From assembly GCA_035510735.1 (NCBI GenBank), contig DATKGN010000004.1, positions 307,810 to 371,809 of the forward strand: 64,000 bases of DNA. The letters run 5' to 3'. Each line of letters begins with the position of its first letter. Position 1 is the first letter of the stretch. The translations under genes were made by a program, and so were the position numbers. The stretch comes from Patescibacteria group bacterium. GTDB taxonomy: Bacteria; Patescibacteriota; Microgenomatia; UBA10105; UBA927. The notes beneath the pieces were generated by a model that saw only the letters and a list, made by a program, of their open reading frames with translations, had not been told where the DNA came from and searched no databases. This document shows, piece after piece, positions 6,150 to 29,162 of this stretch.

Positions 6150-6152
6150 AGG

Positions 6153-7271
6153 TTATTGAATAAACAGCGGCAGTGTTACACCAACTAATGAAAATATCAC
6201 ACCCGTGATGAGTAATATTACGGTCGTTTCAAAGTTTCCTGTTGCGGGTATTGCGCTGCCTGTTGAGACTTCCGGTGCTGAGTCGCCTGATGCGACAACG
6301 AAAGGTGTCGTCGCCGTTTGCGTCTGGCCGGTGGTGGGATCGGTGGCCATTGCTTCAACGGTATGTGATCCCGGATCAAGCGGTGTTGTCGGAGTGTAGA
6401 CCCAATTACCATTAGCGTCGACTGTGACGACAGCCGTCTGAGGATCCGAGTGGATGATAATCGTGATTGTCGAGCCAGGAGCCCCTTTCCCGCTTATGAC
6501 GGGTGTTCCAGTATTAACACTCTCATTGGGCGTTATCGATGTAATGGTTACGGCTGACGTGCTGGCGTTAGTCGTTGGAGCTATAGTGTCAGTGGGTTCG
6601 AGGGTCGGAGTAGGAGTCGTGGTAACTCCGGTGAGATTGGCAGAAGATGTAGCTTGGAATGTGGCCGAGGAGCTTGCGGCCTGATTGGCAGAGAGGGAAG
6701 TCGTGGTTGTATCAGTCGACTGAGTTCCGTCAGCATTAAGAATGGTGATATTTGCGGGGATCGTACCGGTAAGTACGTTTGTTCCGCTCTCCTGAAGTGC
6801 GCTTGCGTACGTGTCGGGATCAGGAGCGAACCGGACGGAAACGGGTGTCGCTGATCCCGCAAGGGCTTTCATATGAATGGTTGCGACCGTGCCGACGCCG
6901 ACGATAGGTTTGGTCGTGCTTTCTGCTCCTACTTTGATAGTGGCTTTGCCGATCGGATCAACAGTTCCGGAAATTAATATACTCGGTGTCAGTGGGCCAT
7001 TTTTTGGAGGCGATGCTTGCAGTTTTGTTGGGTCAAACAGAAGGACTATCTGAATAGCGACGACTTGGTTTGTTCCTGTATCAATTTTTACGTCGAGATC
7101 AAACCCGTTATCATCTCCTGCTTTTGTGGTTACGACAGATGGGCTCAGGGATAGTGTTGTTGCCGGCGCAGCACGTTTACGGACTTCCTGATTTTGACTG
7201 ACAAGCAGGATGGTGGCCGGGATTGCGAGTAATATAATTCCAATAGAAATATACAGGAACACTTTTTTCAT
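6153..7271 (-). CDS. Secreted/surface protein with cohesin-like domain, Thr/Ser-rich linker, Ig-like domain and C-terminal IPATG + hydrophobic anchor
   Basis: Signal/TM at N-terminus. VAIQIVLLFDPTKLQA cohesin-like segment. Long T/S-rich low-complexity region. C-terminal IPATGNFETT followed by a ~20-aa hydrophobic tail (LPXTG-like sorting signal, but lacking a basic tail). Confidence 0.5.
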   Translation of the reverse strand: MKKVFLYISIGIILLAIPATILLVSQNQEVRKRAAPATTLSLSPSVVTTKAGDDNGFDLDVKIDTGTNQVVAIQIVLLFDPTKLQASPPKNGPLTPSILISGTVDPIGKATIKVGAESTTKPIVGVGTVATIHMKALAGSATPVSVRFAPDPDTYASALQESGTNVLTGTIPANITILNADGTQSTDTTTTSLSANQAASSSATFQATSSANLTGVTTTPTPTLEPTDTIAPTTNASTSAVTITSITPNESVNTGTPVISGKGAPGSTITIIIHSDPQTAVVTVDANGNWVYTPTTPLDPGSHTVEAMATDPTTGQTQTATTPFVVASGDSAPEVSTGSAIPATGNFETTVILLITGVIFSLVGVTLPLFIQ

Positions 7272-7387
7272 CCGTGAGTCTTATTATGGATGAGTTTTGC
7301 CTCAATCGCAAGAGATATATACATATATTTTTACGTCTTTATGATAAAATGTGGTTTATATGATTCATACAGTCTAAATTACAATTT

Positions 7388-8770
7388 ATGACAGATATTG
7401 AACGATCAGAGGTTGTCGGCCCTTATAGCGATTTACAGACGCGCAATTTGGTTCTGCAGATAAAAAGTACGGATCCGATTGATGAGGATCAGGGGTATCA
7501 GTGGGAAGAAGTACAGCATCCGGGCAGGGTGGAAAATGATTTAGTCGAGAGAGAGGGGAGGTCGGTAGAGAAAAAAGGGGCGGCTGTTCCATATACCGCT
7601 GAGTATTTTACCGCGATTGCGGATGAAAAAGAACGTATGAGGGCGTATCGGGGTCTTGTGGTCGTCTCTATCGTTCCAGATGGAGAAGATACGGAAATTG
7701 AAACCGATCCGTTCAAATTTCTTTACGCTCCTCGTGATGCGAGTTTTGCCCAAGTACGTGACGCGTATATCAGACTCTCTAAAGCATGGTTTCCTGATTT
7801 GATGTATCCGGAGAATAAAGAACAATTTAATAGAATTTTTGGCTTCGATGAGTTTCCGATAAAGGAAAACGACCCCCAGAAATGGTTTAATGAAATGCAA
7901 TCTATTCTTCCGCCGGATACTCTTACTACCGAGGATTTCGAGAGTTTACGTTCCGATGAACAAGAAACGTATCAAAAGGCTCATGAGGCGCATGAGAAGA
8001 AAAAGAGTGAATACGAAGACGTAAAAGCAGAAATGAGACGCCGGGCAACCGAGAAGATGACAATCATCAATAAAGCTTTTGAGGCAGCAAAAAAGAGATT
8101 TTCGAAAGAAGAAATAGAATCGTTTGCCGGGTTTAACTGGAAAAAAGAAGCGCTTTATGGGCCGGCAAGAGGCGTTTTCGAACAGGTCGTATTACCTCTA
8201 GAGGGAAATGGTCAGCTAATAAAAAAAATTAATGAAGCTTATCAAGATGATCAAATATATCTTGAATTTGATTATGGTCATGCACTTCTTGAAAGAAGTC
8301 AGAAGGATTATAGACAACGTTTACCGCTTCGTGCCTTTTTTGCCTGGACAGAACTAAGAAGAGGGGTAGGGCTTTGCCCAACACTTCTTGACGACCTTGT
8401 TAAAACATATTCCTTTGAAGATGACCGGGCTGAACAGTTACGAATCATGATTATTAATCATGAAGCACCCGAGTTTATTGTAACGGCGCTGAACATTACG
8501 GATGAAGATTCCGGCGAACTATTGGGCTTTTTGGATGAAGTATATGAAGGCCCGATGTACTATCACATGTTGGCCATTCATTCAGACGAATTTTATCCAT
8601 TGGGAGTTGAGTTTACGTCCGATGGGCGGTTAATTCTTAAATATAAGGCGCAAAGCATACAAGGTGGTGGGTCTTCAAAGGGGACTTGGCAGGAAACACA
8701 ATTTAGTCAAACGGACGTACAAATCATGCAAGCTGTAGCATATGGTCCTTTGTTGCAAGAACCTCACTGA
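7388..8770 (+). CDS. Hypothetical acidic protein with a degenerate J-like segment (HPD replaced by FPD)
   Basis: 460 aa. RDASFAQVRDAYIRLSKAWFPDLMYPENKEQFNRIF aligns to the J-domain helix II-loop-helix III consensus with HPD changed to FPD. Sits immediately upstream of hrcA-grpE-dnaK. Confidence 0.55.
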   Translation: MTDIERSEVVGPYSDLQTRNLVLQIKSTDPIDEDQGYQWEEVQHPGRVENDLVEREGRSVEKKGAAVPYTAEYFTAIADEKERMRAYRGLVVVSIVPDGEDTEIETDPFKFLYAPRDASFAQVRDAYIRLSKAWFPDLMYPENKEQFNRIFGFDEFPIKENDPQKWFNEMQSILPPDTLTTEDFESLRSDEQETYQKAHEAHEKKKSEYEDVKAEMRRRATEKMTIINKAFEAAKKRFSKEEIESFAGFNWKKEALYGPARGVFEQVVLPLEGNGQLIKKINEAYQDDQIYLEFDYGHALLERSQKDYRQRLPLRAFFAWTELRRGVGLCPTLLDDLVKTYSFEDDRAEQLRIMIINHEAPEFIVTALNITDEDSGELLGFLDEVYEGPMYYHMLAIHSDEFYPLGVEFTSDGRLILKYKAQSIQGGGSSKGTWQETQFSQTDVQIMQAVAYGPLLQEPH

Positions 8771-8828: not shown

Positions 8829-8836
8829 ATTGCTAA
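8810..8836 (+). promoter_or_regulatory. CIRCE-like HrcA operator with a degenerate right arm
   Basis: TTAGCACTC-N9-TATTGCTAA versus consensus TTAGCACTC-N9-GAGTGCTAA. The left arm is perfect; the right arm matches only TGCTAA. Confidence 0.6.
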
Positions 8837-8853
8837 ATCGTTTAAAATATCGT

Positions 8854-9588
8854 ATGGATCAACTGAAAGATTTAACTCCGCGCCAGATTCAAATCCTCAA
8901 GGCAATTATTGAGGAATATATCGCAACCGCCGAACCGGTCGGCTCTGAAACGCTGGATAAAAAATATAACTTAGGCGTGTCGCCGGCCACAATCAGAAAC
9001 GAGATGGTGCGGTTGACCGATATGAAACTCCTCAACCAGCCGCATACGTCAGCGGGTCGAAGTCCGACGCCCGCTGCTATGCAATATTACGTTTCCCAAC
9101 TCATGAAGACACATGATTTATCGGTCACTGATGAGGTGGCGGTCAAGGAGAAAATGTGGGATTACCGGCAGGAAGTTGATAAATTACTCCGGGAAGCTAC
9201 TAAAACGCTCGCAGAGAAGACGAAGACCTTGGCGATTACGGCGACGGCAGACGGGGATTTATATTACGCAGGCGCGGCAAATGTGCTTGATATGCCGGAG
9301 TTTTATGACTATGAATTAACACACGAATTATTTGAAACGCTCGACCGGTTTGATTTTTGGTGGGCGATTTTGAAACAGCATGACGTTGTATCTGATATTG
9401 TCCTAGGGAATGATATGGGTGAGCGCGGGTTATTGTCGCAGTGCGGGTTTATCTATACGAAATTTAATTCGCAGCATGTGTCAGGGGCAATCGGTGTCGT
9501 CGGGCCATCCAGGCTAAATTATCAGATTATTGTGCCGGTAGTCACCTACATGGGTGGTCTCATCGGAGAATTTGCAAGCAGTTGGTAA
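8854..9588 (+). CDS. hrcA: Heat-inducible transcription repressor HrcA (short form)
   Basis: N-terminal winged-helix LTPRQIQILKAIIEEYIATAEPVGSETL and ATIRNEM motifs. ATG at 8854 chosen over the upstream TTG because of the promoter position. Confidence 0.85.
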   Translation: MDQLKDLTPRQIQILKAIIEEYIATAEPVGSETLDKKYNLGVSPATIRNEMVRLTDMKLLNQPHTSAGRSPTPAAMQYYVSQLMKTHDLSVTDEVAVKEKMWDYRQEVDKLLREATKTLAEKTKTLAITATADGDLYYAGAANVLDMPEFYDYELTHELFETLDRFDFWWAILKQHDVVSDIVLGNDMGERGLLSQCGFIYTKFNSQHVSGAIGVVGPSRLNYQIIVPVVTYMGGLIGEFASSW

Positions 9589-9637: not shown

Positions 9638-10135
9638 ATGAAGAAACCTGACGAAAAAAAAGTTACTAGTGTGCCGGTAAAACAACTCGATGAGCAGGTG
9701 CAGGAACTTGAACGCGTAAAGTTAGAGCGCGATGATTGGAAGGGAAAGTGCATGCGGGCGCTTGCCGATTATCAAAATCTTGAGCGCCGCGACAGGGAGG
9801 AGAAAGATGAGGTCCGGGTCTATGCGGCGGAGATAATTTTAGGGAGACTGTTGCCGTTTGTCGACACAATCTCACGGGTGGCAAAGCACATTGACGATAT
9901 GGGTCTACGGCTTGCACTTAAAGAACTGGGAGCTATATTACAGGAACAGGGAGTAACACAGATGAATGTAGTTGGAAAATCATTTAATCCGCACGAGATG
10001 GAATGTATAGAGGTCGTTGACGGGGAAGATAATAAGGTGGCAGGAGAGTTATTGCCGGGTTATCTTTTCCGGGGCAAGGTTCTGAGAATTGCGCAGGTAA
10101 AGGTCGGAAAAAAGAATAATCCAAAGAACGCATAA
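9638..10135 (+). CDS. grpE: Nucleotide exchange factor GrpE
   Basis: 165 aa with an N-terminal coiled coil and a C-terminal GrpE beta-domain (LPFVDTISR, LKELGAILQEQGV, FNPHEMECIEVV). Confidence 0.85.
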   Translation: MKKPDEKKVTSVPVKQLDEQVQELERVKLERDDWKGKCMRALADYQNLERRDREEKDEVRVYAAEIILGRLLPFVDTISRVAKHIDDMGLRLALKELGAILQEQGVTQMNVVGKSFNPHEMECIEVVDGEDNKVAGELLPGYLFRGKVLRIAQVKVGKKNNPKNA

Positions 10136-10240: not shown

Positions 10241-12163
10241 ATGGCAAAAATTATCGGTATCGATCTTGGAACTACCAATTCATGTGTGGCCGTCATGGAG
10301 GGCGGCGCGCCGAAAGTGATCTATTCGCTTGAAGGGCGAAACGTTTTTCCGTCGGTCGTTGACCCTATTAAAAACGTGGTCGGCGACGTGGCGAAGCGGC
10401 AGATGGTAATAAACCCCAAGTCCACTATTTATTCCGTGAAGCGTTTGATGGGGCGTAAATTCAGCGATCCGTCCGTACAACTGGATATGAAATTACTTCC
10501 CTATGCGATTAAATCAGGGAAAAATGACATGGCGGTTGTTGAAGTCGAGGGAAAGCAATTTACTCCGCAGGAAATTTCCGCCAAAATATTGGCAAAAATC
10601 AAATCGGATGCCGAGCATTATCTCGGCAGCCCTGTGACGCAAGCCGTTATTACGGTGCCGGCATATTTTGATGACAGCCAGCGTCAGGCGACCAAGCAGG
10701 CCGGTGAAATCGCGGGACTTGAGATCCTTCGTATTATCAATGAGCCGACGGCTGCAGCGCTTGCCTATGGTTTAGATAAGAAAAATGCCCACACGATCGC
10801 AGTCTACGATTTAGGCGGCGGTACGTTTGATATCTCCGTTCTTGAACTCGGTGAGGGCGTCTATGAGGTGAAGTCAACAAACGGGGATACGCATTTGGGC
10901 GGCGACGATTTTGATAAAAAGATTCTTGATTATCTTGCCGACGAATTTAAAAAAGAGCACGGTGTTGATCTCCGGAAAGACCCTCAGGCGCTTCAGCGCC
11001 TTCGGGATGCGGCTGAAAAGGCGAAAATCGAACTTTCAAGCTCGATGGAAGCGGAAATTAACCTTCCGTTTATTACCCAGGGTAAAGAAGGCCCGGTCCA
11101 TCTCGTGACCAAAATTACGCGGGCAAAGCTCGAATCGCTCGTCGGTGACTTGGTTGAGAAAACCATCGAACCGGTTAAAAAATGTCTTGCCGATGCTAAA
11201 TTATCGGTCAAAGATATTGATGAAATCGTCATGGTTGGAGGAATGACCAGGATGCCGAAAGTTGTCGAAACGGTGAAGAAGTTTTTCGGCAAAGATCCGA
11301 ATCAATCGGTTAATCCTGACGAAGTGGTTGCGGTTGGTGCAGCAGTACAGGGTGGCGTGCTTTCCGGTGATGTGAAAGACATCGTCCTTCTTGACGTGAC
11401 GCCATTAACCCTTGGGGTTGAGACATATGGAGCCGTATCGACGCCATTAATTACGCGAAATACGACGATTCCGACCAGTAAAACGGAAATATTTTCAACG
11501 GCTGCCGACAGCCAGACGTCGGTTGAAATCAATGTGCTCCAGGGTGAGCGTGCAATGGCCGCAGATAATAAATCGCTCGGGCGGTTTGTGCTCTCCGGTA
11601 CTCCGCCGGCGCCCCGTGGCGTGCCGCAGATCGAAGTCATGTTTGATATCGACGCGTCAGGAATCTTAAGCGTGTCGGCGAAGGACAAAGCGACCGGCAA
11701 AGTCGCTAATATCAAAATAACGGGCTCGACCGGACTTTCCAAAGATGAGATCGAGAAGATGAAGAAAGAGGCAGAGGCGCATGCCGCTGAGGATACGGAA
11801 AAGAAAGAGAAGGTCGAGTCGAAGAATAAAGCGGAAAACATGATGTACGTCGCCGATAAGACGCTCAAAGACATGGGCGATAAGGTGAAGCCGGAGGATA
11901 AGACAGTCGTTGAAGAGAAGAAAAAAGCGCTCAAAGATATTCTTGAGACGGGTTCCAAAGACGATCTTGAAGCCAAAACCAACGATCTTTCGGAAACGCT
12001 TCAGAAAATCGGAGCAGCTGCGTATCAGCAGGCCAGCGAAGCTGGTCAGGCGCAGGCCGCCGCAGGTGGAGCCGGCACAGCCGGTACACCGCCCGGTGAC
12101 GATACCAAAAAAGACGACAAGAAGGATGATAAGAAGGTTGAAGAAGGGGAAGTCGTTAGCTAA
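10241..12163 (+). CDS. dnaK: Molecular chaperone DnaK (Hsp70)
   Basis: [22 protein letters not shown] and VGGMTRMP motifs. 640 aa. Confidence 0.97.
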
Positions 12164-12234: not shown

Positions 12235-13152
12235 ATGAATGAAGTTCGTGTAGCAGAAGTTCCAGCTGCAGAAAGACATCTTGATATGCCGATTGAGGTG
12301 TATTTAATGAATGCTGCGACGAACGACGAACGAATAGTTATGGAAAATACATTCGCCTTCTGGCAGCCATTTAAGAATCCTTACACGGATGAGATAAAGG
12401 ATTCAGGATCAACAGTAGGATTGGAGAGTAGGGCCGGAGGTATGTGCGTGCATCTAATGGATGGGTATTTCGTTACCCCGAAACACGTGAGTGACGCGTA
12501 TTCTTTATCGGATGACTCTGAAGTAGAATTCAGAGATAGGATTCCAGATGTGATTTTTGATATTTATGGAACCAAACGGAATATCCAACCAGATTTAATA
12601 TTTTCTAATCCTCGATATGCATTGAGAACATTCGATGATTTCGTGATTTTTAGGGTTGATCCTATTAAATATCCGTGGATACAACAATTACCACGATACC
12701 CTATTATTTCGAATCACAAAGTTGCTGTGGGTCGTTCAATTTGCGTGGGAGTACCTGATCTTATATTTCCGTTGGGGTTTGATGAGAAAGGTGATCCATT
12801 AGTTGTTGATAACGTGGGACGTCAACTGACGGTTCGTTTGAAGGAAAACGACGTACCAATTTGGAAAAGAAAAGTTTCTATTGAAGAAGCACGTCTCCAT
12901 GCTCGAGCAGGAGAGGAGTATCCCTCTTGGTTTTTTGGTGTGCCAATGACAAGAGAAGCAAAAGGATATACAAAAGGACCCTTCATTAATAATGAGATGT
13001 TTATTAGTAAAGGATATAGCGGGGGACCTTTAATTCATAATGGTGTATTGCTTGGGATGGTTGTCGAACCTGATGTTGAATTTGGGAGCGGTGGGGGAGG
13101 ATATGCGGTTGATATTAAATTAGTGTTTAAGACGTTGCGCGGATTGATGTAG
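12235..13152 (+). CDS. Cytoplasmic trypsin-like (S1/chymotrypsin-fold) serine protease-like protein inserted between dnaK and dnaJ
   Basis: GYSGGPLIHNGVLLGMVV matches the GDSGGP catalytic-serine motif. TPKHV is His-box-like. DDFVIFRVD could supply the Asp. No signal peptide. Confidence 0.5.
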   Translation: MNEVRVAEVPAAERHLDMPIEVYLMNAATNDERIVMENTFAFWQPFKNPYTDEIKDSGSTVGLESRAGGMCVHLMDGYFVTPKHVSDAYSLSDDSEVEFRDRIPDVIFDIYGTKRNIQPDLIFSNPRYALRTFDDFVIFRVDPIKYPWIQQLPRYPIISNHKVAVGRSICVGVPDLIFPLGFDEKGDPLVVDNVGRQLTVRLKENDVPIWKRKVSIEEARLHARAGEEYPSWFFGVPMTREAKGYTKGPFINNEMFISKGYSGGPLIHNGVLLGMVVEPDVEFGSGGGGYAVDIKLVFKTLRGLM

Positions 13153-13166
13153 TATATTAATGTATT

Positions 13167-14093
13167 ATGGCAACGAAGAGAGATTTTTACGAGGTATTAG
13201 GAGTCAGTAAATCTGCGTCCGCCGATGAGATCAAGAAGGCGTACCGGAAGCTGGCTTTAGAGTGGCATCCCGACCGGAATAAAGCCGCAAACGCACACGA
13301 AAAATTCAAGGAAATAAACGAAGCCTACGAAGTGTTATCCGATCCCAAAAAGAAACAGACATTTGATCAGTTTGGCGCGAGCGCATTTGAACCCGGGATG
13401 GGCGGAGCGGGCGCGACAGCGGGTCAGGGACCGTTTGGCGGCGGAGGATTTCAGCAAGGGCCGTTTACGTATTATTACCAAACCAATGGCGGGGCCCAGC
13501 AGGGCAATCCGTTTGCAGGAGGCGGCGCCGAGGGATTTGATTTTTCCGATCCGTTTGATATTTTCGAACAATTTTTCGGCGGCGGGTTCGGCAGAGCCCA
13601 GACATCCCGCCGAGCGCATCCGGCATATGAAATCACCATTGATTTTATGGACGCCGTGAAGGGCGTTTCCAAAGAAGTTCACCTCCCAAAGGGCGCTGCA
13701 GGTGAGGGAAGCGTCAAAAAAACCATAAAAATTCCGGCAGGAGTCGACACGGGCTCGCGAATCCGGTTTGATGATTTTGATATTGTTGTTGAAGTCCGGC
13801 CGAGCCAGCAGTATCACCGCGAGGGCAATGACCTTGTCATCGAACAGGCCATCACGTTCACGCAGGCGGCCCTGGGCGCCGTCGTTGACGTGCCGACTAT
13901 TGACGGAACAGTGAAAATCCGCATCCAGCCCGGGACTCAGCCGGGCACATTAATCAGACTTCACGGTAAAGGCGTCCCATCGGTCCGCGGCGCAGACCGC
14001 GGCGACGAATACGTCAAAATCCAGCTTCAAATCCCGACGCACCTCAACCACAGGCAAAAAGAGCTATTGGAAGAGCTTGAGAAGGTATCTTAG
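13167..14093 (+). CDS. dnaJ: DnaJ-family co-chaperone, type II (J domain + G/F region + C-terminal domains; no zinc-finger CxxCxGxG repeats)
   Basis: [34 protein letters not shown] domain, a Gly/Phe-rich region and a CTD. The protein contains no cysteines at all. Confidence 0.9.
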
Positions 14094-14112
14094 GTGTTAG
14101 GATTGTATATCT

Positions 14113-14925
14113 ATGACTTCTGAAGATTTATTAGTAGAGGCACTTCCCCTTTATAGAATTTTACAATCTACAGAAATAGCTGAGCGGTACTTAACGCCAA
14201 CATTTGCAACACTGCATGAAATGGCGAATGAGGCCTCTTTTCGGAATCGGGAGTATGGATGCCAAGTCAGTAGGATTAGACCACCACAAGAGGATACTTC
14301 ATTCCTTTCGACGTATACTATCGGTGATACCCGTACTGTTTTTGAACCTGAACGTAAGCCTGAATCTGTTGACGGCGTGTTTTTTCATACCCATTTCCGA
14401 CATAATCCTAGTTTGATTGATTCCTTAAAAGGTAAAAAAATGAGATCTTGGTATATGTTACCGAGTGATCTTGGTGTGCCGAGATCAATGAAAGCTCTCG
14501 AAATTTCCTGTGATATGTATGCACAAAAAGGATCAAAACAATTAGGCGGGTATTTTAATATTGTCACACCATTTCACTGGGCACTGCATATTTGGCAGGA
14601 GCATCAGAGTGGAATTTCAGTACCGGATTCGCAGTGGGAAATTGTTGAGGGTACGCAAAAAGGCAGGATATTTACCTGGCAGGAATTACTCAGGGATACG
14701 AAGTCTAAACCGGATAATGTGATGGTTTGGAAGCATAATTGGCCCGGAGGGGTGCAAAATTATTTTTTAGTTAGAAGTTTTTTGTTAGCAGATCAACTGG
14801 AGAGAGAAATCGGATCAGTTAAGGGACTATGTTATGGTGATGGAGTAGTTGTCCTTATGGATCGATTGGGGCTTCAGCATATTCCACACGCACGAAACTT
14901 AAGTGAAATTACAAAACTGTCCTGA
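14113..14925 (+). CDS. Hypothetical protein (inserted cassette gene downstream of dnaJ)
   Basis: 270-aa ORF with no recognisable family. Flanked by the native dnaJ 3' end and a duplicated dnaJ 3'-end fragment. Confidence 0.6.
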   Translation: MTSEDLLVEALPLYRILQSTEIAERYLTPTFATLHEMANEASFRNREYGCQVSRIRPPQEDTSFLSTYTIGDTRTVFEPERKPESVDGVFFHTHFRHNPSLIDSLKGKKMRSWYMLPSDLGVPRSMKALEISCDMYAQKGSKQLGGYFNIVTPFHWALHIWQEHQSGISVPDSQWEIVEGTQKGRIFTWQELLRDTKSKPDNVMVWKHNWPGGVQNYFLVRSFLLADQLEREIGSVKGLCYGDGVVVLMDRLGLQHIPHARNLSEITKLS

Positions 14926-14934
14926 CGGCATTAA

Positions 14935-15012
14935 ATTGTCAAAAGCCAGCTTCAAATTCCGACACACCTCAATCACAGGCAAAAAGAATTACTTGAAGAA
15001 TTAGAGGTCTAA
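14935..15012 (+). repeat. Duplicated dnaJ 3'-end fragment ([25 protein letters not shown]-stop), a diverged copy of 14011-14093
   Basis: In-frame peptide nearly identical to the DnaJ C-terminus ([27 protein letters not shown]). The nucleotide differences are mostly synonymous, and an in-frame stop lies immediately upstream. Confidence 0.8.
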
Positions 15013-15999
15013 AACCCTGCCAATTCCAAGCTCGATGAGGGAGAGTGAATTAAGAAGAGTAGAAACGAATGTCGGATCATAAGAATTGAACGACGGGTCT
15101 GCATAGTATTTACGGCTTAATGCGTATACCTCTTCGATATTTACCACTGATTGCATCAATGAAGTATCAATTGTGCTATATCGGTGTTGGGCTAGTTCGC
15201 GATAGTACCGAAATTGTTGAGATACCCAATCGACGAGTATTTTCCTTTGTTCTTCAAAAGTTGCATGTACATGGTCTACAAAACTGCTCTGGTATTTTTG
15301 TTGTGCTTCAGATTCCCAATGACCCATTTCCCTTATCATGTCTCGTTCTTCTTGCCTGAAAACATCATTTAGTAGATTCGAGACCATAAAACTATAGTTC
15401 GGGTTATCAAGATAGCGGATGAGTTTGTTCGTGCTAATACCATGAAAAGTGAATGGAGCCACGGTGATATCATGTGTTGCGAATATCGGGACGGTATAGT
15501 GAATATGGGGAATAGGGCGTTGTTCCTCTGCTAACTGCATCAGGCGCATGGCTACAATTCCCGACGTAAAAAACTTATCACGACCTTCATCAATTGGAAA
15601 CGTATATTTGAGTGCAAATTCTTTTTTACCGTCGTTAGTGATTAAAAATATTGTGTACACTTTGCTTTCCATCCCTCCCAATGTATTGTTCCCCTGAATA
15701 ACGTGTCCGTCGTATATTTGAGAGAGTATTCCTGGATTGTTGGCTAAGAGATGTACGCCTTCCGGTGAAGCGATAAACGTAGCAGGAACCAAACCTGCAA
15801 GTGTTTGTTCATTGTGTTCTAACGAGGCGATTACAGTGTTTCCCATGAAATCATGAGAAACCATAACGCCGGGTAGTTCGGTGGGTTGCAGCCTGGTATC
15901 CAGGTATCGCTGTATAGCGTCTAGTGGTGGTTTATCAAATCTGGTTATATATTTAAGGCGTTCTGGCGGTCTATCCATAGATGGCGGCGATTGTATCAA
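15001..15999 (-). CDS. Hypothetical protein
   Basis: 332-aa ORF with no recognisable family. Its stop codon lies inside the duplicated dnaJ fragment. Confidence 0.55.
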   Translation of the reverse strand: MIQSPPSMDRPPERLKYITRFDKPPLDAIQRYLDTRLQPTELPGVMVSHDFMGNTVIASLEHNEQTLAGLVPATFIASPEGVHLLANNPGILSQIYDGHVIQGNNTLGGMESKVYTIFLITNDGKKEFALKYTFPIDEGRDKFFTSGIVAMRLMQLAEEQRPIPHIHYTVPIFATHDITVAPFTFHGISTNKLIRYLDNPNYSFMVSNLLNDVFRQEERDMIREMGHWESEAQQKYQSSFVDHVHATFEEQRKILVDWVSQQFRYYRELAQHRYSTIDTSLMQSVVNIEEVYALSRKYYADPSFNSYDPTFVSTLLNSLSLIELGIGRVLDL

Positions 16000-16209
16000 A
16001 CTGTGTATTATTTATCCATAATTTTGCATCGGGGATTGCAAACCAATGGGCAGAGTGACGCATACGAAATTCCCTTCGGGCATATTAAGTTGATTATCCC
16101 CAATATCGAAAAGGCAAGAGATGTACTATTGGGAGGGGAATTTAAAGAAGTAGCAGATAAACTAACGGTACTGTCTAAATTAGTTGAAGATGATATCGTT
16201 TCTAACGAT

Positions 16210-16324
16210 GGAGCGTTGGCAGAGCGGTAATGTCGGAGTTCTCGAGACTCTAGGAGGCTAAAATACATCATAATTAAGTGTGTTAGTAAGTGTTTCGTAG
16301 GTTCAAATCCTACACCCTCCGCCA
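16210..16324 (+). tRNA. tRNA-like gene (type II/Ser-like features) with a ~45-nt AT-rich insert between the anticodon arm and T arm; 3' CCA encoded
   Basis: Acceptor GGAGCGT/ACCCTCC (one mismatch). 3-bp D stem with GAGCGGTAA loop. Anticodon stem GGAGT/ACTCT with 7-nt loop TCTCGAG. Canonical T arm GTAGG-TTCAAAT-CCTAC. Discriminator G then CCA. Total 115 nt, too long for any standard tRNA. Confidence 0.45.
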
Positions 16325-16478
16325 GGACGGACAAAATATAAAACGAGTTATCTGGCAATCCAGAGCATACGAAAAACACATTCGAACTAAAGAATATGTT
16401 TAGCTTGAGAGGAGGCGGGATTTGAATCTAACTATTTATGATGTCAGAAGAAATATTATTTCTCGATTTAATTAAGGG

Positions 16479-17360
16479 TCAATAATTGGTAAACCCAACT
16501 TTTGGATTTTGACACATATCGAAATTAGAAAAGCTTGCTACTCCAATTCCAGAACCACTACCGGTAGCAGTAAGCCGTAAATTACTCAACGCACTTTGGA
16601 TGTTTGTAAATTCGGAAACAAGATGATAATCCACCTCATTGTGCAATTTGTATGAAAGTTTCACATCAGTGCCAATTTTCAGAATTTTGAATCTTAAAGG
16701 AACATTTGTTGGAGTTTTGATATTGGAAATCCCAGTATCGTTTGATTTTCCATTCGAAATATTATAAGCTCTTACTCCACCTAAGTTGTCTCTAAGCAAT
16801 ACAACCCCATTTTTCAGATCTTTATCCCTTAGTACAATTGTTCCAATCATTTGATCGGAAGAACTGTCTGTTTCTACGGGTAATACGTCAATCTCAATTG
16901 ATATGTTTTCAGTATTTAAATTCGTCATCTCTACTGCACGACCACGCCAACTTTTCTGTAAACCCACTTTTTCAATCAACTGTGAATTTGATACATTAAA
17001 ATTGTCGCGGGAATCTAAACTAGTCGGACTTGCTACGATATTCCAATTCTGTGAATTAAGTGTAATACCGGGGAAAGTGTCCTGTAATTCAGTCGAACAA
17101 GGTGCAATCACCGGACTACTTATTGGCGATGGAACGACAGGAGTTGGTGTTGGTTGAACTAAGGAGATTTGTTGTTTCAGTTGCATATTTTGATACGCAA
17201 AGAATCCCGCAGCTCCGAGAACAAGGAGCAGAATAATAATTATACATACCATTAATAGCGGGTTATTTGATTTTACAGGCATTGGCGTAACCGGTTGTAT
17301 TGGAAATGGCTGTGAAGGAGTCGGAGGTATCGGCGTTTGAGGAGGAATAATAGGTTCCAT
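16479..17360 (-). CDS. Proline-rich membrane-anchored protein with extracellular domain (hypothetical)
   Basis: N-terminal P-rich repeats (PIPPTPSQPFPIQPVTP), one TM helix and a ~200-aa exported domain. Confidence 0.55.
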   Translation of the reverse strand: MEPIIPPQTPIPPTPSQPFPIQPVTPMPVKSNNPLLMVCIIIILLLVLGAAGFFAYQNMQLKQQISLVQPTPTPVVPSPISSPVIAPCSTELQDTFPGITLNSQNWNIVASPTSLDSRDNFNVSNSQLIEKVGLQKSWRGRAVEMTNLNTENISIEIDVLPVETDSSSDQMIGTIVLRDKDLKNGVVLLRDNLGGVRAYNISNGKSNDTGISNIKTPTNVPLRFKILKIGTDVKLSYKLHNEVDYHLVSEFTNIQSALSNLRLTATGSGSGIGVASFSNFDMCQNPKVGFTNY

Positions 17361-17547
17361 AAATTTATCATAGCATGATTAAATTTATTAAACGATAAGA
17401 TTTACGCTACAATTCAATTGTCCTTGAGGTAAGATAGTGGTTTTGAAATAGGTTATAACACTGTAAATAGTTCTCCGCACAAATTTTTTTGTTCACCCGT
17501 ATATCTGTGATATTATATGTGTGTTTACTAACACACTTAACATAACA

Positions 17548-17568
17548 AGCCCTTTCGTGGGGCTTTTT
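17548..17568 (+). terminator. Rho-independent terminator-like hairpin (AGCCC-TTTCGTG-GGGCT + TTTT)
   Basis: 5-bp GC-rich stem plus U-tract, downstream of a possible weak promoter (TTGTTC ... TATTAT) at ~17490-17515. Confidence 0.45.
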
Positions 17569-17587
17569 ATGTGGCCGGCCGAGGAGA

Positions 17588-17616
17588 TTGACGGGTGATG
17601 TGTAAGTGAGTATAAT
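17588..17616 (+). promoter_or_regulatory. Consensus sigma-70 promoter TTGACG-N17-TATAAT
   Basis: TTGACG 17588-17593, 17-nt spacer, TATAAT 17611-17616. Transcript would start ~17623, i.e. ~140 nt upstream of the nusA ATG. Confidence 0.65.
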
Positions 17617-17640
17617 ACGGCTAAGATTTGTTCTCGATGA

Positions 17641-17666
17641 GGTGGGATGTTCCCACCTTTTTTATT
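17641..17666 (+). terminator. Strong intrinsic terminator/attenuator hairpin GGTGGGA-TGT-TCCCACC followed by TTTTTTATT
   Basis: Perfect 7-bp stem plus 6 U, located ~20 nt after the predicted transcription start and 100 nt before nusA. Confidence 0.6.
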
Positions 17667-17751: not shown

Positions 17752-17763
17752 GTGGATACTAAC

Positions 17764-18915
17764 ATGCCGGCAACAGTACGAAGCGAATTTTCATTAGCAC
17801 TTAACCAGGTCGCAACCGAACGGGGAATTGATCCCGCGATCGTGTTGGATACGATCAAAGCCGCAATTTTGGCCGCCTACCGCAAAGATTACGGTGAGAA
17901 CGAACTTGAAACGTTGACGGTGGACCTCAATGCCGATAACGGTGAAGCAAAGATTTTCAGAGACGGAAAAGATATCACTCCTCCGGGATTCGGCCGGATT
18001 GCCGCTCAGACCGCAAAACAGGTCATATTACAGCGTATCCGCGAAGCCGAAAAACAGGCAGTTTTGGCTGATTATCAGACCAAAGTTGGCACGATTGCAC
18101 CCGGTATGGTACTCCGGTTTGACGGCCCGAATATCATTGTCGATATCGGCAGAACCCAGGCCGTTATGCCGCCTCAGGAGCAAAGTCAAGGCGAGCGTTA
18201 TCACCTTAACCAACGGCTTACGTTTTACATTGAGGGAATCAGGGAAACTGCACGAGGCAACGAAATCATCGTTTCCCGCGCGCACAAGGGGTTGGTCGAA
18301 GGACTTTTCCGGCGCGAGGTTCCTGAAGTTGCACAGGGTTCAGTTGAACTCAGGGTGGTCGCACGGGAAGCCGGTGGTCGCACCAAAGTGGCCGTATTCT
18401 CGACGCAATCAGGGGTTGATCCGGTCGGAAGCTGTGTCGGACAAAAAGGCGTCCGCGTGCAGGGAGTAATCGGCGAACTGGGTGGTAGTGAAAAAGTCGA
18501 CATCATTCAATGGAGCGAAGACGCCAAACAATTTATCACTGCGGCTTTGGCGCCAGCCAAAGACATTGAAGTAAGTCTTGATGAAAAGAAAAAAGCTGCA
18601 GTAGTTCTTATTCCTGAGGATCAATTATCTTTGGCGATCGGTCGCGACGGACAAAACGTGCGGCTCGCCGCGAAATTAACCGGCTGGAAAATTGATATAA
18701 AGGGCAAAGGAGTTCCTGTGGTAGAAGCACCAGTTGCACCAGCAACACCGGAAACAATAGAAACGCCAAAAGAAGAGGGGACAAAAGAAGCAAAAGAAGA
18801 GAAGGCGGCAGCGGAAACGCCCGTCGTTGTCGCTCCACCCGCAGCAGTACAACCCGTTACACCCACCGATACAAAACCAGCGGATACAAATTCAGCAGAT
18901 TCTAAAAAAGAATAG
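17764..18915 (+). CDS. nusA: Transcription termination/antitermination factor NusA
   Basis: N-terminal domain, S1 and KH domains (GPNIIVDIGRTQAVMPP, VGSCVGQKGVRVQ, LAIGRDGQNVRLA). Low-complexity acidic/Pro-Thr C-terminal tail. Confidence 0.9.
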   Translation: MPATVRSEFSLALNQVATERGIDPAIVLDTIKAAILAAYRKDYGENELETLTVDLNADNGEAKIFRDGKDITPPGFGRIAAQTAKQVILQRIREAEKQAVLADYQTKVGTIAPGMVLRFDGPNIIVDIGRTQAVMPPQEQSQGERYHLNQRLTFYIEGIRETARGNEIIVSRAHKGLVEGLFRREVPEVAQGSVELRVVAREAGGRTKVAVFSTQSGVDPVGSCVGQKGVRVQGVIGELGGSEKVDIIQWSEDAKQFITAALAPAKDIEVSLDEKKKAAVVLIPEDQLSLAIGRDGQNVRLAAKLTGWKIDIKGKGVPVVEAPVAPATPETIETPKEEGTKEAKEEKAAAETPVVVAPPAAVQPVTPTDTKPADTNSADSKKE

Positions 18916-18945: not shown

Positions 18946-20427
18946 ATGACCAAAAAGCAAACGACAACAGAAAACACTTCGTTCAGGCCGCCGATCGTCG
19001 CGGTTCTGGGTCACGTTGACCACGGTAAAACCTCTCTTCTTGATGCCATCCGTAAAGAGAACGTCGCAGGCGGCGAATTCGGCGGAATCACCCAGCACAT
19101 CGGTGCATACCAGGTCGCTATTGAAGGCAGATTAATTACGTTCATTGATACCCCGGGTCACGAGGCATTCGCTAAAATGCGCTCGCGCGGAGCCAATGTC
19201 GCCGATATTGCCCTCCTCGTCGTTGCCGCTGATGACAGCGTAAAACCACAAACGAAAGAATCGATTGATCAAATTAAAGCCGCAGGCGTCAGCATGATTG
19301 TCGTTGTCAACAAAGTTGATTTGCCGACCGCAAATATTGATAGGGTGAAGCAGGATTTGGCAAAAGTCGGCGTCCAGGTCGAAGGATTCGGCGGCGATGT
19401 GCCGATTATCGGGGTTTCCGCGAAAGCCGGGACCGGACTCAAGGATTTACTTGAATTGGTTTCTCTCATGGCGCAGATGAAAGAACTGAAAAATGAAGCA
19501 GCAGCGCCGTTTGAAGCAGTGGTCATCGAAACCCGTTTGGACAAAGGAAAAGGAATGGTTGCCACGATTCTCGTTAAAAAAGGAACGCTCAAATACGGGA
19601 TGACCATTTATGAAGGCGCCAAAATCGTCGCGAAAGTACGCGCGATGTTTGACGAATACGGCAAAGTCGTTATGTCAGCCGGTCCATCAAAACCGGTTGA
19701 AGTATTGGGATTTACGACGCTTCCCCAGGTCGGTGCGCTTTTGACCAGTCTTCCCATAGTGATAGCCGCGGCGCCTCAGGTTAAAAAAGATATAACGGCA
19801 GCGCCGACAAATGATCTTCCGGACTGGCTTAAACCGGTTAACGAACAGGAGAAAGAAAAATTAAACATTATTTTACGCGGCGATACATCAGGATCACTTG
19901 AGGCCATCACTGCATCTTTGGGTGACCGCATCCGTTTAATCGGGAGCAATGTCGGAGACATCACCGAGGCAGACGTCCTTATGGCCCGTGGAACGAAAGC
20001 GTTTATCGTCGGATTTAACGTAAAATGTCCGCCGGCTGTTGCCAAACTCGCCCAGACGGAAAAAGTGATATTTCGGACATATAACATTATCTATGAGCTT
20101 CTTGATGAGATGACTGAAGTCGTTTCCGGCATGAAGGAAGTACTTTCCCAGGAACGCGAGCTCGGGAGTGGTGTCATCATTGCAGAATTCCCTTACGAAA
20201 AAACACGTATTGCAGGCACAAAAGTGACTACCGGCCGCCTCGCACGGGGTGATAGTGTCAAGATAATGCGGGCGGAAGAGGAAATCGGACGCGCAAAGAT
20301 TAAGTCAATTCGCAAAGGGAAGGAAGAGGTGACCAAAGTCGAGGAAGGCGTCCAATGCGGCATCCAATTAGACCGGACAGTTGCGTTTCAGGTAAATGAT
20401 GGTATAATCTCCGTTACTACAGGATAA
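18946..20427 (+). CDS. infB: Translation initiation factor IF-2 (short form lacking N-terminal domains)
   Basis: GTP-binding domain [27 protein letters not shown] and NKVD motifs. 493 aa. Confidence 0.92.
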
Positions 20428-27972: not shown

Positions 27973-28507
27973 TTGTATTTTCTGCCTCATCGGGAACTGC
28001 TCCACAATAAGGGTTGATAAGCATCCGATAAAGCAGTTCCCACTGTTGTTGTGACGGCTCCTGGCGCCTAACGTCAAAATCGCTATCAGGCATGTTCTGA
28101 AAATTGTTGAATGTTACACTGCTTTCTATATAAGGATCTCCGGGAGTTATTTTTATATTCAGCGAATACCCCGAAAATAAAATGCTTGTGGGATAATTGA
28201 AAAACAGATCGACAGAAGCCGCTTGCGGACTTATGTTGGTGTTCACTGATGGGCGGACGTTGACGCTGTCCGGATGCTTATAAGGAAACGGTAAAAGGTT
28301 GCGTGGTCCCCGATGAAACCAGATAAGTTTATCCACTCCCTGCCTTATAGGCTCGTCGATGTCGACAGCAAAATAAATACCCATGTCAGCCCCGTAGGTG
28401 CCGTCAGGTTGCAGTTTGCAGAGCTTGTCGACGAATCGATGAATTTTTTCCTGTATCGCAATATCTGCTTCTGGAGTTTTGGATTGATCAAGCTCCGCAA
28501 TGTTCAT
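27944..28507 (-). CDS. Hypothetical protein (cassette gene 1 at the rnj/typA junction)
   Basis: 187-aa ORF with no recognisable family. Its 3' end overlaps the last codons of rnj. Confidence 0.5.
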   Translation of the reverse strand: MNIAELDQSKTPEADIAIQEKIHRFVDKLCKLQPDGTYGADMGIYFAVDIDEPIRQGVDKLIWFHRGPRNLLPFPYKHPDSVNVRPSVNTNISPQAASVDLFFNYPTSILFSGYSLNIKITPGDPYIESSVTFNNFQNMPDSDFDVRRQEPSQQQWELLYRMLINPYCGAVPDEAENTIILPRSQEL

Positions 28508-28595
28508 ACAAGAGAATTACACTGCTTTGGGGCTTTATTGTCAACTATTTGATCGTGAGAACGTTTAATTTTCCGTCCGTTTGGCGGACTGCTCG

Positions 28596-28628
28596 CCGCT
28601 TATTGTCCCAGTAATCGTGGAAGTATAA
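28596..28628 (+). repeat. Duplicated rnj 3'-end fragment (PLIVPVIVEV-stop)
   Basis: 25/30 nt identical to 27943-27972. All 5 differences are synonymous third positions. Peptide identical to the RNase J C-terminus. Confidence 0.75.
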
Positions 28629-28645
28629 AGGATCCTACTTTGTTA

Positions 28646-29005: not shown

Positions 29006-29069
29006 ATAGATTTACTGTAAAGTGGGAAATAGTGCATGTCAAGAATGACGCGCCTGTAGCGTGAGGTAG

Positions 29070-29111
29070 TTAACAAATTTATTGAAAAATTAGTTATCCT
29101 TCCGTTGCGCC
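29070..29111 (-). repeat. Duplicated typA 3'-end fragment (MRIDRVRAQRKDN-stop on minus strand)
   Basis: Compare the native TypA C-terminus AKIDRVRAQRTNN-stop at 30127-30168. The nucleotide core GCGGTCGATT is shared. Confidence 0.65.
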
Positions 29112-29162
29112 CGTACGCGGTCGATTCTCATGGAGCGTTTCGTGGAATTCGGCTGCATGCTG

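Follow-up and report, generated by a model that had tools for sequence, protein, structure and literature searches.

A second copy of the dnaJ 3' end in an uncultured Gottesmanbacteria genome, possibly left by the joining of spacer alleles

Introduction

The genomes of the CPR (Patescibacteria) are small and contain hardly any recognisable mobile elements, but lineage-specific orphan genes are numerous in them. How do such genes come to lie against the ends of essential genes? The locus described here, from an uncultured member of the Gottesmanbacteria (CPR), is a concrete, datable trace of such an entry: an inserted gene follows dnaJ directly, and beyond it the last codons of dnaJ are found a second time. 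The DNA analysed is a stretch of 64,000 nt (the window; assembly GCA_035510735.1, contig DATKGN010000004.1, positions 307,810-371,809, forward strand), and all coordinates below are those of the window unless another genome is named. An earlier note on this sequence had described the repeated dnaJ end and ascribed it to an insertion process that targets gene termini. We ask here where the second end came from.

Results and discussion

The dnaJ locus

The dnaJ gene (308 aa; 13167-14093, plus strand) is a core gene of the hrcA-grpE-dnaK-dnaJ operon; the identical called gene matches Pfam DnaJ and DnaJ_C, and its product is 93% identical in amino acid sequence to that of the closest relative, L007 (assembly GCA_964385705). 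The working terminus that is still attached to it (a1; 14013-14093, plus strand) is of the host type. It is followed by a spacer (s1; 14094-14112, plus strand) that contains AGGA and has a homologous counterpart in L007; a promoter and terminator scan predicted neither kind of signal in s1, so the next gene is probably co-transcribed with dnaJ. That gene, X270 (270 aa; 14113-14925, plus strand), is conserved and is read here as cargo; its N-terminal half is JAMM/MPN+-like, and it does lie between the two dnaJ-end copies, as the earlier note had it. After a second short spacer with the junction (s2; 14926-14937, plus strand), which is at the same position as the junction in L007 (AAATT, five nucleotides, then AA[G/T]CCAGCTT, as judged by eye from the two sequences and from the colinear alignment), comes the distal copy (d1; 14938-15012, plus strand). 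It consists of 23 codons followed by V-TAA, lies outside any gene, has two in-frame stops upstream of it and uses AT-rich synonymous codons.

An orphan gene convergent on dnaJ, X332 (15001-15999, minus strand), stops within the duplicated fragment, again in agreement with the earlier description. The antisense of the d1 tail provides the last three codons and the stop of X332, and this stop codon is the antisense of a TTA codon (15001-15003) that is specific to the d1 copy. X332 has no Pfam or PHROG matches and is absent from L007. Together with an ORF at 16008-16379 and X293 (16479-17360) it makes up a 2.6-kb low-GC block (15007-17603; 35-45% GC, against about 50% in the flanking core genes) which is missing as a whole from L007 and which presumably arrived together with d1. 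The right-hand conserved flank of the variable spacer is the nusA promoter (TTGACG-17-TATAAT) with its leader hairpin (17588-17659, plus strand), 87% identical to L007 positions 5996-6298. Another orphan gene, X305 (12235-13152, plus strand), lies between dnaK and dnaJ; it too is absent from L007, and it has no boundary copy.

The two copies of the dnaJ end

Positions 14013-14081 and 14938-15006 are identical at 58/69 nt, so the duplication stands much as first reported, with 11 differences in place of about ten and a start that had been placed (at 14018) about 2-5 nt off. The 11 substitutions fall three at codon position 1, one at position 2 and seven at position 3 and cause one amino acid change, I to S; none of 100,000 simulations of 11 random substitutions gave as few as one (P<1e-5). 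The tails are unlike, EKVS-TAG at 14082-14093 and V-TAA at 15007-15012. With the distal copy of L007 (d2) as outgroup, the d1 branch has eight synonymous changes and one non-synonymous change (counted from the sequences), the former including two double-hit Leu codon switches. The sole non-synonymous change is at the extreme left edge, as are five decayed nucleotides of d2, and such an edge position is expected if crossovers refresh only the sequence to their right.

Among a1, the left part of d1 and d2 the mutual pS is about 0.3-0.4 and the pN about 0.02-0.03 (counted from the sequences), and working genes of the window and of the L007 genome differ by a pS of 0.38-0.52 and a pN of 0.02-0.03. 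A neutral relic is expected to diverge equally at all sites. Because the differences are almost only synonymous and are near the level of working orthologues, the terminus copies are best read as the ends of working dnaJ alleles and not as decayed local duplicates. The earlier claim that the fragment diverged under coding constraint is thus upheld by the synonymous excess, by the simulations and by the agreement of pS and pN with those of working genes. Composition separates the copies as well: GC3 is 0.39 in d1, 0.33 in the attached terminus of L007 (a2) and 0.33-0.39 in the cassettes (0.39 in X332), and it is 0.56-0.57 in the dnaJ bodies (0.57 in the window), 0.65 in a1, like the dnaJ body, and 0.62 in d2 (P = 0.06 and 0.03 in the two GC3 tests).

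Two other origins of d1 were rejected. It is not an extension of X270, since it is in frame with that gene in the window with two stops between them and is out of frame in L007, and it is not the remnant of a dnaJ paralogue, since it is nearer to the dnaJ end of its own clade than to that of any of 75 other lineages.

The same gene order with 100% identical proteins was found in at least ten samples from different assembly pipelines (ENA ERZ27248486; Logan SRR8695230, SRR8676594, SRR8676595, SRR8693976 and SRR6960558; JGI 3300037365; and Ga0224520 among the sources), where sameness means 100% protein identity when the look-up was by protein and full nucleotide identity for L091 only. All population samples show this single fixed arrangement, with no empty site and no circle among them.

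The displaced native end in L007

L007 aligns colinearly with the window through the dnaJ body, X270 and the distal copy at about 85% identity, and only over the attached terminus does identity drop to 56-60%. The window terminus a1 matches the displaced L007 copy, d2, at 57/63 nt and the attached one, a2, at only 39/63; on this comparison the working dnaJ end of L007 is a foreign 75-nt patch, and the native end sits beyond X270. A single ancestral insertion followed by purely vertical decay is ruled out by this displaced native end together with the synonymous-only divergence. The foreign patch and the displaced copy start on the same 10 nt (AATCCAGCTT), a coincidence that would fit one reciprocal crossover with a circle and is more element-like than homology plus an illegitimate join.

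The L007 alignment covers window positions 13166-14999 and then picks up at 17604. That the distal copy belongs to the ORF at 14113-14925, which the earlier note placed between the two copies, is not borne out: since X270 differs from its L007 counterpart by a dS of 0.53, which is about core-gene divergence, and d1 is physically interlocked with the right-hand block (15007-17603) that L007 lacks, the distal copy is probably not tied to X270.

The dnaJ-nusA spacer in related genomes

dnaJ and nusA are less than 300 nt apart in 34 of 55 related loci, and in the other 21 they are separated by 0.4-4.9 kb of unrelated DNA; the window spacer is 3659 nt. This synteny bears out the proposed insertion downstream of dnaJ and supports the view of the X270 region as an insertion relative to an ancestral dnaJ-nusA adjacency. 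The arrangement is not an old one fixed uniformly in the group: L007 has both X270 and the fragment, with the native end displaced, L087 has X270 without the fragment, and most relatives have neither. In the window, L007/L100, L101 and others, gene content varies between the same core flanks, namely dnaJ-nusA, dnaK-dnaJ and rnj-typA. L100 and L101 have different cassettes at the same junctions without copies, which is a replacement mode. Metagenome-contig scans for X270 and X332 relatives gave only one identical copy and no donor allele for d1 with X332 or for a2; the term "foreign allele" is based on the divergence pattern and the composition of only 63-69 nt, which counts against the reading given below.

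Similar copies at other genes

The likeness to the rnj/typA junction that had been pointed out earlier is confirmed, and mltG has the same signature. Terminus copies are present at rnj (three copies), typA and mltG in the window, and at dnaJ in L075 and dnaK in L017, two other Microgenomates. There is a synonymous excess in all nine of the terminus-copy pairs (that of L075 includes a TCT to AGC serine switch), and in no copy does similarity extend past the stop codon, which would follow if the adjoining spacer came from the donor as well. At rnj/typA the units stand as r2-X2-t'-r3-X3-t, the arrangement of whole alleles joined head to tail. At ygjP the boundary copy is of the promoter and 5' end, unlike the 3' ends elsewhere. 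The sites (dnaJ, rnj, typA, mltG and the ygjP 5' end) have no evident common motif, and the repeats are 17-95 nt long; their longest identical runs (14 nt in the window, 10 nt at the left edge in L007, 28 nt at the right edge in L075) vary in position. A nested insertion, X159, has a 17-nt flanking repeat with a single mismatch, and at 45.5-49 kb there is one ORF per unit. About nine boundary copies are present in the 64-kb window, against roughly four in about 1.13 Mb of other Microgenomates loci, an enrichment of roughly 25-fold in this genome. Generic recombination leaves this enrichment unexplained, and some factor peculiar to the lineage may lie behind it.

X270 and the other cassette proteins

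The residues E47, H92-x-H94, P117-S118 and D134 of X270 are invariant in 17 family members and make up a JAMM/MPN+ zinc-site motif (E...H-x-H...S...D) in which the spacing from HxH to S/D is longer than canonical. The N-terminal half is accordingly described as JAMM/MPN-like and the protein as a putative peptidase. None of the 17 family members matches the Pfam JAB-type profile, and X270 has no PDB sequence match. An AF2 model became usable with a 17-sequence alignment (three sequences gave a pLDDT of 30), and Foldseek found no significant match for it in the PDB. A profile of the 17 sequences added one protein from an index of 5.8e9 proteins. Two distant relatives, L088 and L090, have neighbourhoods without dnaJ or a clear terminus copy; the relative in L090 adjoins a tyrosine recombinase, and a short G-rich match there proved to be a hairpin.

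Searches of Pfam, PHROGs and PDB sequences gave no matches for the cassette ORFs, X270 included. They are unrelated orphans, with a membrane protein and a sigma-like factor among them besides the putative JAMM-like peptidase, and a hidden common "mobility" protein was rejected after an all-against-all comparison showed the cassette proteins to be unrelated.

Search for mobility functions

The cassette ORFs and 20 other window ORFs (through 41.5 kb) yielded no recombinase, transposase or nuclease domain, and there was no integrase among the 30 window ORFs compared with Pfam (those through 41.5 kb and those of the cassettes at 44.8-49 kb). No homing endonuclease was found, and X270 is not recognisable as one. 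The window has no tRNA genes or Rfam matches, and between 13950 and 15100 there are no terminal inverted repeats and no attC-like inverted repeats at the cassette boundaries. The duplication, 69-75 nt long and 84% identical, is unlike the short identical target duplication of a transposon or insertion sequence, and no enzyme of integrative elements, integrons, transposons or insertion sequences was found in these scans. What the locus does have is a target gene kept intact by an incoming end (in L007), an empty site in relatives (the 34 loci with dnaJ next to nusA), and variable content between conserved flanks without mobility genes. The pilus/uptake genes for PilN and PilO are encoded in the window. 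Of the gene-terminus-targeting insertion process first proposed, then, the insertion and its recurrence at other termini stand, and an active targeting agent lacks support, no recombinase, transposase or nuclease having been found to fill that role. Two explanations account equally well for the recurring position: site-specific targeting, or crossover in the last part of dnaJ with a conserved nucleotide sequence, with survival limited to hybrids that have an intact DnaJ.

Origin of the second dnaJ end

We give a probability of about 0.5 to the reading that the fragment at 14938-15012 comes from the 3' end of another dnaJ allele, one that used to work, and was left behind as foreign spacer alleles joined the resident one and did not replace it. 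The spacer 3' of dnaJ in Gottesmanbacteria would be a hot spot with lineage-specific content, at which DNA from related lineages recombines; since the window has pilus genes and no mobile-element genes, that DNA probably enters by natural transformation. The crossover point would be the last well-conserved stretch of dnaJ, which encodes GDEYVKIQL, so that the next 23 or so codons move together with the spacer that comes in. If both flanks took part in a double crossover, the cassette would be swapped without trace. The incoming allele would be added by one crossover with a circularised fragment, or by a one-sided homologous crossover plus an illegitimate join, giving two dnaJ ends of which one is attached and working and the other stranded. 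The stranded end could then act as a 75-nt homology arm for later exchange of the DNA to its right, and each such exchange would overwrite it with working-dnaJ sequence and so give it a purified look. The ancestor shared with L007 probably had X270 and its junction with a dnaJ-end copy, and the X332-X293 block would be a later arrival that brought the present d1 sequence; X270, as a JAMM-like putative peptidase, would be cargo and not agent. Exchange by homologous recombination in the flanks is suggested by the localised foreign patch of L007 and by the link between d1 and the X332 block. RecA recombination is inefficient over 33-90 nt of 63-84% identical DNA, and this counts against the joining of alleles, which also accounts only in part for the origin of the a2 patch, confined as it is exactly to the duplicated segment.

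Several other explanations deserve weighing. The source is a metagenome-assembled genome, and the layout does resemble alternative alleles strung together, as if an assembly or binning artefact had concatenated strain variants; the recovery of one gene order with 100% identical proteins from at least ten samples through different pipelines, which also excludes the assembly collapse or expansion allowed for in the earlier note, and the divergence of the copies (63-84% identity, too low for graph mis-joins) make this scarcely credible. A local tandem duplication, or a long target-site duplication made at insertion, with ordinary decay of the unused copy thereafter, would leave direct copies close together around inserted DNA, as is seen here, and the X159 repeat could be a true target duplication. 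This idea is very improbable for the dnaJ end, given that eight of the nine d1-branch changes are synonymous (P<1e-5 for random placement), that the terminus copies have a pN of about 0.03 where neutral divergence between the lineages is about 0.4-0.5 per site, that L075 has its serine switch, and that the attached end of L007 has diverged much further than the remainder of its dnaJ. We also think it improbable, if a little less so, that a homing-type mobile ORF is responsible, with a nuclease cutting cassette-free dnaJ and repair copying in the ORF and a cut-resistant terminus that displaces the native one. The L007 layout is exactly that of the mitochondrial cases (gene core, foreign C-terminus, ORF, native C-terminus), and its native copy and the one in the sister genome are about 90% identical, as may be compared with the Glomus atp6, atp9, cox2 and nad3 hybrids (PMC3630166); a nuclease is what the ORF searches above failed to find.

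A more serious rival supposes non-autonomous, site-specific, circular single-gene cassettes in which the mimic of the core-gene terminus is the attachment site and the recombinase is encoded elsewhere in the genome (integron- or IMEX-like), with cycles of excision and re-insertion keeping both copies intermittently in use. The window and L007 segments can be read as circular permutations of one another (native end attached or displaced), both L007 junctions fall on the same 10-nt identity, the L075 repeat has its 28-nt identical core at one end, and the t'-r3 adjacency resembles a circle junction; the one-ORF units at 45.5-49 kb, the fact that boundary copies are so strongly enriched here and the tyrosine recombinase beside the distant X270 relative in L090 are in keeping with it as well. 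Against it are the lack of any recombinase among the 30 window ORFs compared with Pfam, the lack of attC-like inverted repeats and of an evident motif shared by the sites, with their repeats of such different lengths, and the one fixed arrangement in all population samples; the dS of X270 and the positional conservation of the s2/d junction fit vertical descent and not recent mobility. We regard these cassettes as possible and rather doubtful, and are equally tentative about the broader idea of a dedicated, undescribed gene-capture system in this lineage, with boundary-mimic cassettes (3' ends, and the promoter and 5' end at ygjP) and a trans-acting enzyme. If it exists, such a system would line up orphan genes, much as in an integron, at numerous junctions between core genes with the core genes left intact, and its footprints would be the boundary-copy enrichment of about 25-fold and the swapping of native and foreign ends between sister genomes.

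Comparison with known systems

The closest analogues appear to be the C-terminal duplications at fungal mitochondrial mobile ORFs and the integrative elements that replace gene 3' ends. Islands, ICEs and phages integrate at the 3' ends of genes (tRNA and tmRNA genes, and trmE in the case of SGI1) and supply a replacement end. As with these, there are here gene-end direct repeats on both sides of an insert, one copy being the host's and one incoming, and successive arrivals push older ones outward to leave rows of partial gene ends (rnj/typA and upstream of ygjP). Additive tycheposon-type islands with strings of partial tRNAs have been described (bioRxiv 10.1101/2020.12.28.424599; 10.1101/2021.06.18.448947). 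Unlike all such elements, no integrase, excisionase or replication module was found here, the units are single genes of 0.4-1.3 kb, no core is evidently common to the sites, which are several protein-coding termini and one 5' end, and the repeats appear to be diverged throughout.

Mobile ORFs with a duplicated host-gene C-terminus are known from Allomyces atp6 and from Glomus atp6, atp9, cox2 and nad3 (PMC3630166). They share with this locus the order seen in L007, a native copy close to that of the sister taxon, mainly synonymous differences and an intact gene. In the mitochondria, however, what drives the event is a homing endonuclease of the LAGLIDADG or GIY-YIG type encoded by the ORF. The present case has unrelated orphan ORFs in a bacterial chromosome, and the native end is still attached in the window, so that the mitochondrial layout is seen in L007 only. 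Minimal mobile elements are variable cassettes between conserved genes, and homologous recombination following DNA uptake serves to exchange them (Saunders and Snyder 2002, cited in PMC3787668). They and the replacement-type flexible islands resemble our locus in the variable content between core genes, the lack of mobility genes and the probable recombination in the flanks, and they differ in that they replace without a duplicated flank, while here serial addition keeps pieces of the flanking genes. Integron arrays have similar rows of promoterless single-gene units with short repeats between them at a fixed chromosomal place, but no IntI, attI or attC-like folded site was found at this locus, its repeats are copies of neighbouring core-gene boundaries, and its cassettes are in both orientations. 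Our literature search found no description of the terminus-copy pattern in CPR bacteria.

That this lineage adds genes at core-gene ends by recombination and not by a classical mobile element is, in our judgement, the best reading, at about even odds. Foreign, once-working gene ends carried along in this way would tell which lineage was the donor, where the crossover took place and in what order the units arrived. If the pattern is general, gene flow among bacteria that have not been cultured might be mapped with terminus copies as markers, and the parallel with mitochondrial mobile ORFs would reach free-living bacterial chromosomes without a homing endonuclease. The foreign patch in L007 also suggests that a housekeeping chaperone can bear the C-terminal dimerisation segment of another lineage.

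A second dnaJ terminus beyond an inserted gene

The window's host is a Candidatus Gottesmanbacteria (Microgenomates, CPR), and among 185,579 species genomes the top matches to its dnaJ are Gottesmanbacteria and Patescibacteria MAGs. The core genes hrcA (8830-9588), grpE (9638-10135), dnaK (10241-12163), dnaJ (13167-14093), nusA (17752-18915, with promoter and leader at 17588-17659) and infB (18946-20427) are 47-54% GC, and the DNA from the dnaJ stop to the nusA promoter is 35-45% GC throughout. This DNA contains X270 (14113-14925, after a 19-nt spacer; orphan and cassette ORFs are named by amino acid length), a second dnaJ terminus (14938-15012, 12 nt from X270), the minus-strand orphan X332 (15001-15999), a short ORF (16008-16379) and the minus-strand orphan X293 (16479-17360).

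The duplication of the dnaJ end reported in the earlier note is borne out by pairwise alignment, in which 14013-14081 and 14938-15006 match at 58 of 69 nt without gaps. The attached terminus (a1) and the distal one (d1) differ at 11 positions; all but one of the differences are synonymous, as had been said; two Leu codons each differ at two positions (TTG/CTT and CTT/TTA), and none of 100,000 simulations of 11 random changes gave one or fewer amino acid differences. The convergent gene does end inside the copy, the X332 stop codon being the antisense of the d1 TTA codon at 15001-15003. Assembly collapse or expansion, raised earlier as a possible artefact, is contradicted by ten or more samples in which the same sequence was assembled independently, using different pipelines. 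One sample, L093 (ENA ERZ28653749), agrees with the window at 99.8% beginning at 17257, and its positions 1-94 are unrelated to window 17163-17256, inside X293, so a variant of the cassette block may exist in another population.

An insertion hot spot between dnaJ and nusA

The DNA after dnaJ has been inserted, and the site is a hot spot. Comparison of 80 related loci around dnaJ-nusA gives the ancestral order hrcA-grpE-dnaK-dnaJ-nusA-infB, and the synteny check proposed in the earlier note finds the content of this spacer variable: nusA begins less than 300 nt (mostly 45-146 nt) from the dnaJ end in 34 of the 55 loci where it was found, and the other 21 have 0.4-4.9 kb of unrelated DNA in the gap. 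Relatives of X270 follow dnaJ in only three lineages, namely the window, its closest relative L007 (dnaJ 93% and X270 80% identical) and L087, whose X270 is 52% identical to the window's and which has no second dnaJ end. The L007 alignment covers window 13166-14999 and restarts at 17604; L007 lacks the 2.6-kb block 15007-17603, as well as the orphan X305.

X270 belongs to a small family (19 representatives among 1.84 × 10^9 proteins) whose members (P0004-P0021) are 265-307 amino acids long and unannotated. The family has the invariant residues E47, H92-x-H94, P117-S118 and D134, which form an unusually spaced JAMM-like motif (HxH, 20-25 residues, PS, GD), and its proteins share a tail, NLSE(I/V), at the C-terminus; two members match DUF4329 weakly, and one, in L090, lies after divIC and adjoins a tyrosine recombinase. 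An AF2 model built from 17 sequences is confident (pLDDT 86, pTM 0.87), and the most likely identity of X270 is a JAMM/MPN+-type zinc peptidase. It is probably co-transcribed with dnaJ. The other cassette proteins are related neither to X270 nor to each other.

Native and foreign ends in the window and L007

Across dnaJ, X270 and the distal copy the window aligns colinearly with L007 and is about 85% identical to it, and the attached terminus is the only stretch where identity falls, to 56-60%. The displaced distal terminus of L007 (d2) is identical to a1 at 57 of 63 positions, and its attached terminus (a2) at 39 of 63, with 6 of 21 residues different. This comparison indicates that in L007 the native dnaJ end is displaced past X270 and that DnaJ now terminates in a foreign segment. 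GC3 values agree with this: 0.57 and 0.56 in the dnaJ bodies of the window and L007, 0.65 in a1 and 0.62 in d2, 0.33 in a2, 0.39 in d1, 0.33 in X270 and 0.39 in X332. No close donor was found among 75 other sampled lineages, the best outside matches being 47/63 for d1 and 49/63 for a2.

The stray ends might be decaying relics, in which case sequence unused since the lineages split would have diverged equally at all sites. Between the window and L007, dS is 0.53-0.89 for dnaK, dnaJ, X270 and nusA; pS for these working genes is 0.38-0.52 and pN 0.02-0.03 (0.09 for X270). By hand counts, the pairwise differences among a1, d2 and the left two-thirds of d1 are at about the same level (pS 0.3-0.4, pN 0.02-0.03), and when d2 is taken as the outgroup nine changes fall on the d1 branch, eight of them synonymous and one non-synonymous. 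We rejected the relic explanation, since this coding-type divergence is unlike that of unused sequence and argues that each copy belonged to a working dnaJ until recently, or was overwritten from one.

The same signature elsewhere

As the earlier note had stated, the signature is present at rnj/typA, where two extra rnj ends and one extra typA end lie between orphan ORFs (spacer region 27935-30177). From the attached end of rnj (26203-27972, plus strand, convergent on typA) the order is X187 (27944-28507, minus), the second rnj end (28591-28628), X119 (28646-29005, minus), the extra typA end (29090-29140), the third rnj end (29155-29192), X283 (29256-30107, plus) and, last, the attached end of typA (30127-32010, minus); all three extra ends finish in a stop codon. 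The extra typA and third rnj ends are 14 nt apart, an adjacency that is a tandem or circle junction order and not the native convergent junction. The series as a whole is in the order that head-to-tail joining of complete spacer alleles would give. The relatives L100 and L101 carry different cassettes at rnj/typA, without copies.

In 44735-49020, an mltG-like gene end (HNANIAKYLQ*) recurs at 45515-45547, after X220 (44812-45474). Five copies of a ygjP-like promoter and first codons (55-95 nt, at 45558, 46133, 47026, 47605 and 48966) separate four single ORFs in 45558-49020, one of them sigma-factor-like (47676-48935, minus), ahead of the ygjP-like coding sequence from about 49007. Among themselves the non-native copies are 90-95% alike, against 65-69% with the native one, and they have lost the start codon (ATG to CTG). 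ORF 47118-47597, inside the repeat unit 47026-47664, is a nested insertion whose flanking direct repeat is far shorter, at 17 nt including a single mismatch (CATCTGAAGCGGGGGAT / CATCTGAAGCGGGGAAT).

In the Levybacteria-like L075 (8799-9816), a repeat of 30 dnaJ codons brackets an unrelated opposite-strand 261-aa ORF; its two copies are identical over the right 28 nt and have 14 differences over the left 62 nt, one of which is a TCT/AGC serine switch. A second orphan of 261 aa (6634-7419) separates dnaK from dnaJ there. In L017 (850-1750) the dnaK end recurs 300 nt downstream, fused in frame as the last codons of a small inserted ORF (935-1289), and from that reading frame is probably translated. 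Beside this stray end, imperfect inverted repeats (GCAGAATGCTGAATGATGAATGCCGAAT / ATTCAGCATTTAGCATTCATCATTTGGCAT) bracket an ORF-sized stretch.

The terminus-copy pattern is thus general, beyond dnaJ. Similarity ends at the stop codon in every terminus-copy case, synonymous differences are in excess in all nine pairs (P from <1e-5 to 0.04), and a stop-anchored scan gave terminus copies downstream of genes, its upstream control only tandem paralogues.

A proposed recombination route and known systems

In the window and L007 the spacer after X270 meets the distal copy at the same position (AAATT, 5 nt, AA[G/T]CCAGCTT), and the divergence of X270 is about that of the core genes (dS 0.53, dN/dS 0.18); from these sequences the common ancestor probably already had X270 together with a dnaJ-end copy. 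L007 has no X332, the gene with which the d1 sequence of today is interlocked, and the extreme left edge holds the sole amino acid change of d1 and the decayed 5 nt of d2. We propose that later spacer exchanges would use the stranded terminus as their homology arm on the left and nusA on the right, and that each exchange would rewrite the copy right of the crossover with the donor's working-dnaJ sequence. In the window, L007 and L075 the duplication begins directly past GDxYV, the last conserved motif of DnaJ, and before what is presumably the C-terminal dimerisation segment; its start may thus mark the last good crossover site and a point at which a hybrid protein would be expected to keep its function.

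Neither the cassette ORFs nor the other window ORFs scanned (30 against Pfam, those up to 41.5 kb and the 44.8-49 kb cassettes) encode an integrase, transposase or homing endonuclease; the window scans found no tRNA or Rfam RNA, and there is no terminal inverted repeat at the cassette boundaries in 13950-15100. The closest match in form is a fungal mitochondrial mobile ORF, in which the displaced native C-terminus is preceded by a foreign one and by the gene for an endonuclease, and the copies diverge synonymously (PMC3630166), but this locus lacks the endonuclease. Islands borne by integrases, such as tycheposons, likewise leave one host and one incoming version of a gene end and accumulate over time, but their integrase and common core are missing here. 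Minimal mobile elements (PMC3787668) account for both the variable content and the absence of mobility genes, but they replace, whereas the process here is additive. It is therefore best read as a recombination-anchored additive capture that leaves terminus copies, a variant of the systems above; a dedicated trans-acting system is unlikely to be at work. The gene-terminus-targeting process of the earlier note is partly supported: insertion and recurrence at rnj/typA are borne out, and no active targeting agent is evident. X270 is cargo and not a nuclease or recombinase. Copy density is about 1 per 10 kb in the window and about 1 per 280 kb in 1.13 Mb of other Microgenomates loci, an enrichment that the proposed mechanism does not account for.

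Other features of the region

X305 (12235-13152, 305 aa) lies downstream of the terminator hairpin of dnaK and stops 14 nt short of dnaJ, without a boundary copy; its 34-nt near-repeat (12961-12994 / 13009-13042) encodes KGY..GP.I.N twice. The nusA promoter (TTGACG-17-TATAAT, 11/12 match, in 17547-17659) is bracketed by terminator-like hairpins, upstream at 17547-17565 and in the leader at 17639-17659 with a T-run after it, an arrangement that looks like an attenuator and is kept in L007 and L087. Directly upstream of hrcA, a low-GC 460-aa ORF (7388-8770) with a sub-threshold J-domain match (residues 107-150) may encode a divergent J-protein beside the chaperone operon. A 791-aa protein (39142-41517) with a weak Baseplate_J-like region, among otherwise housekeeping neighbours (alaS, msrB), has a conserved counterpart in the sister genome L100 and probably one in L101.
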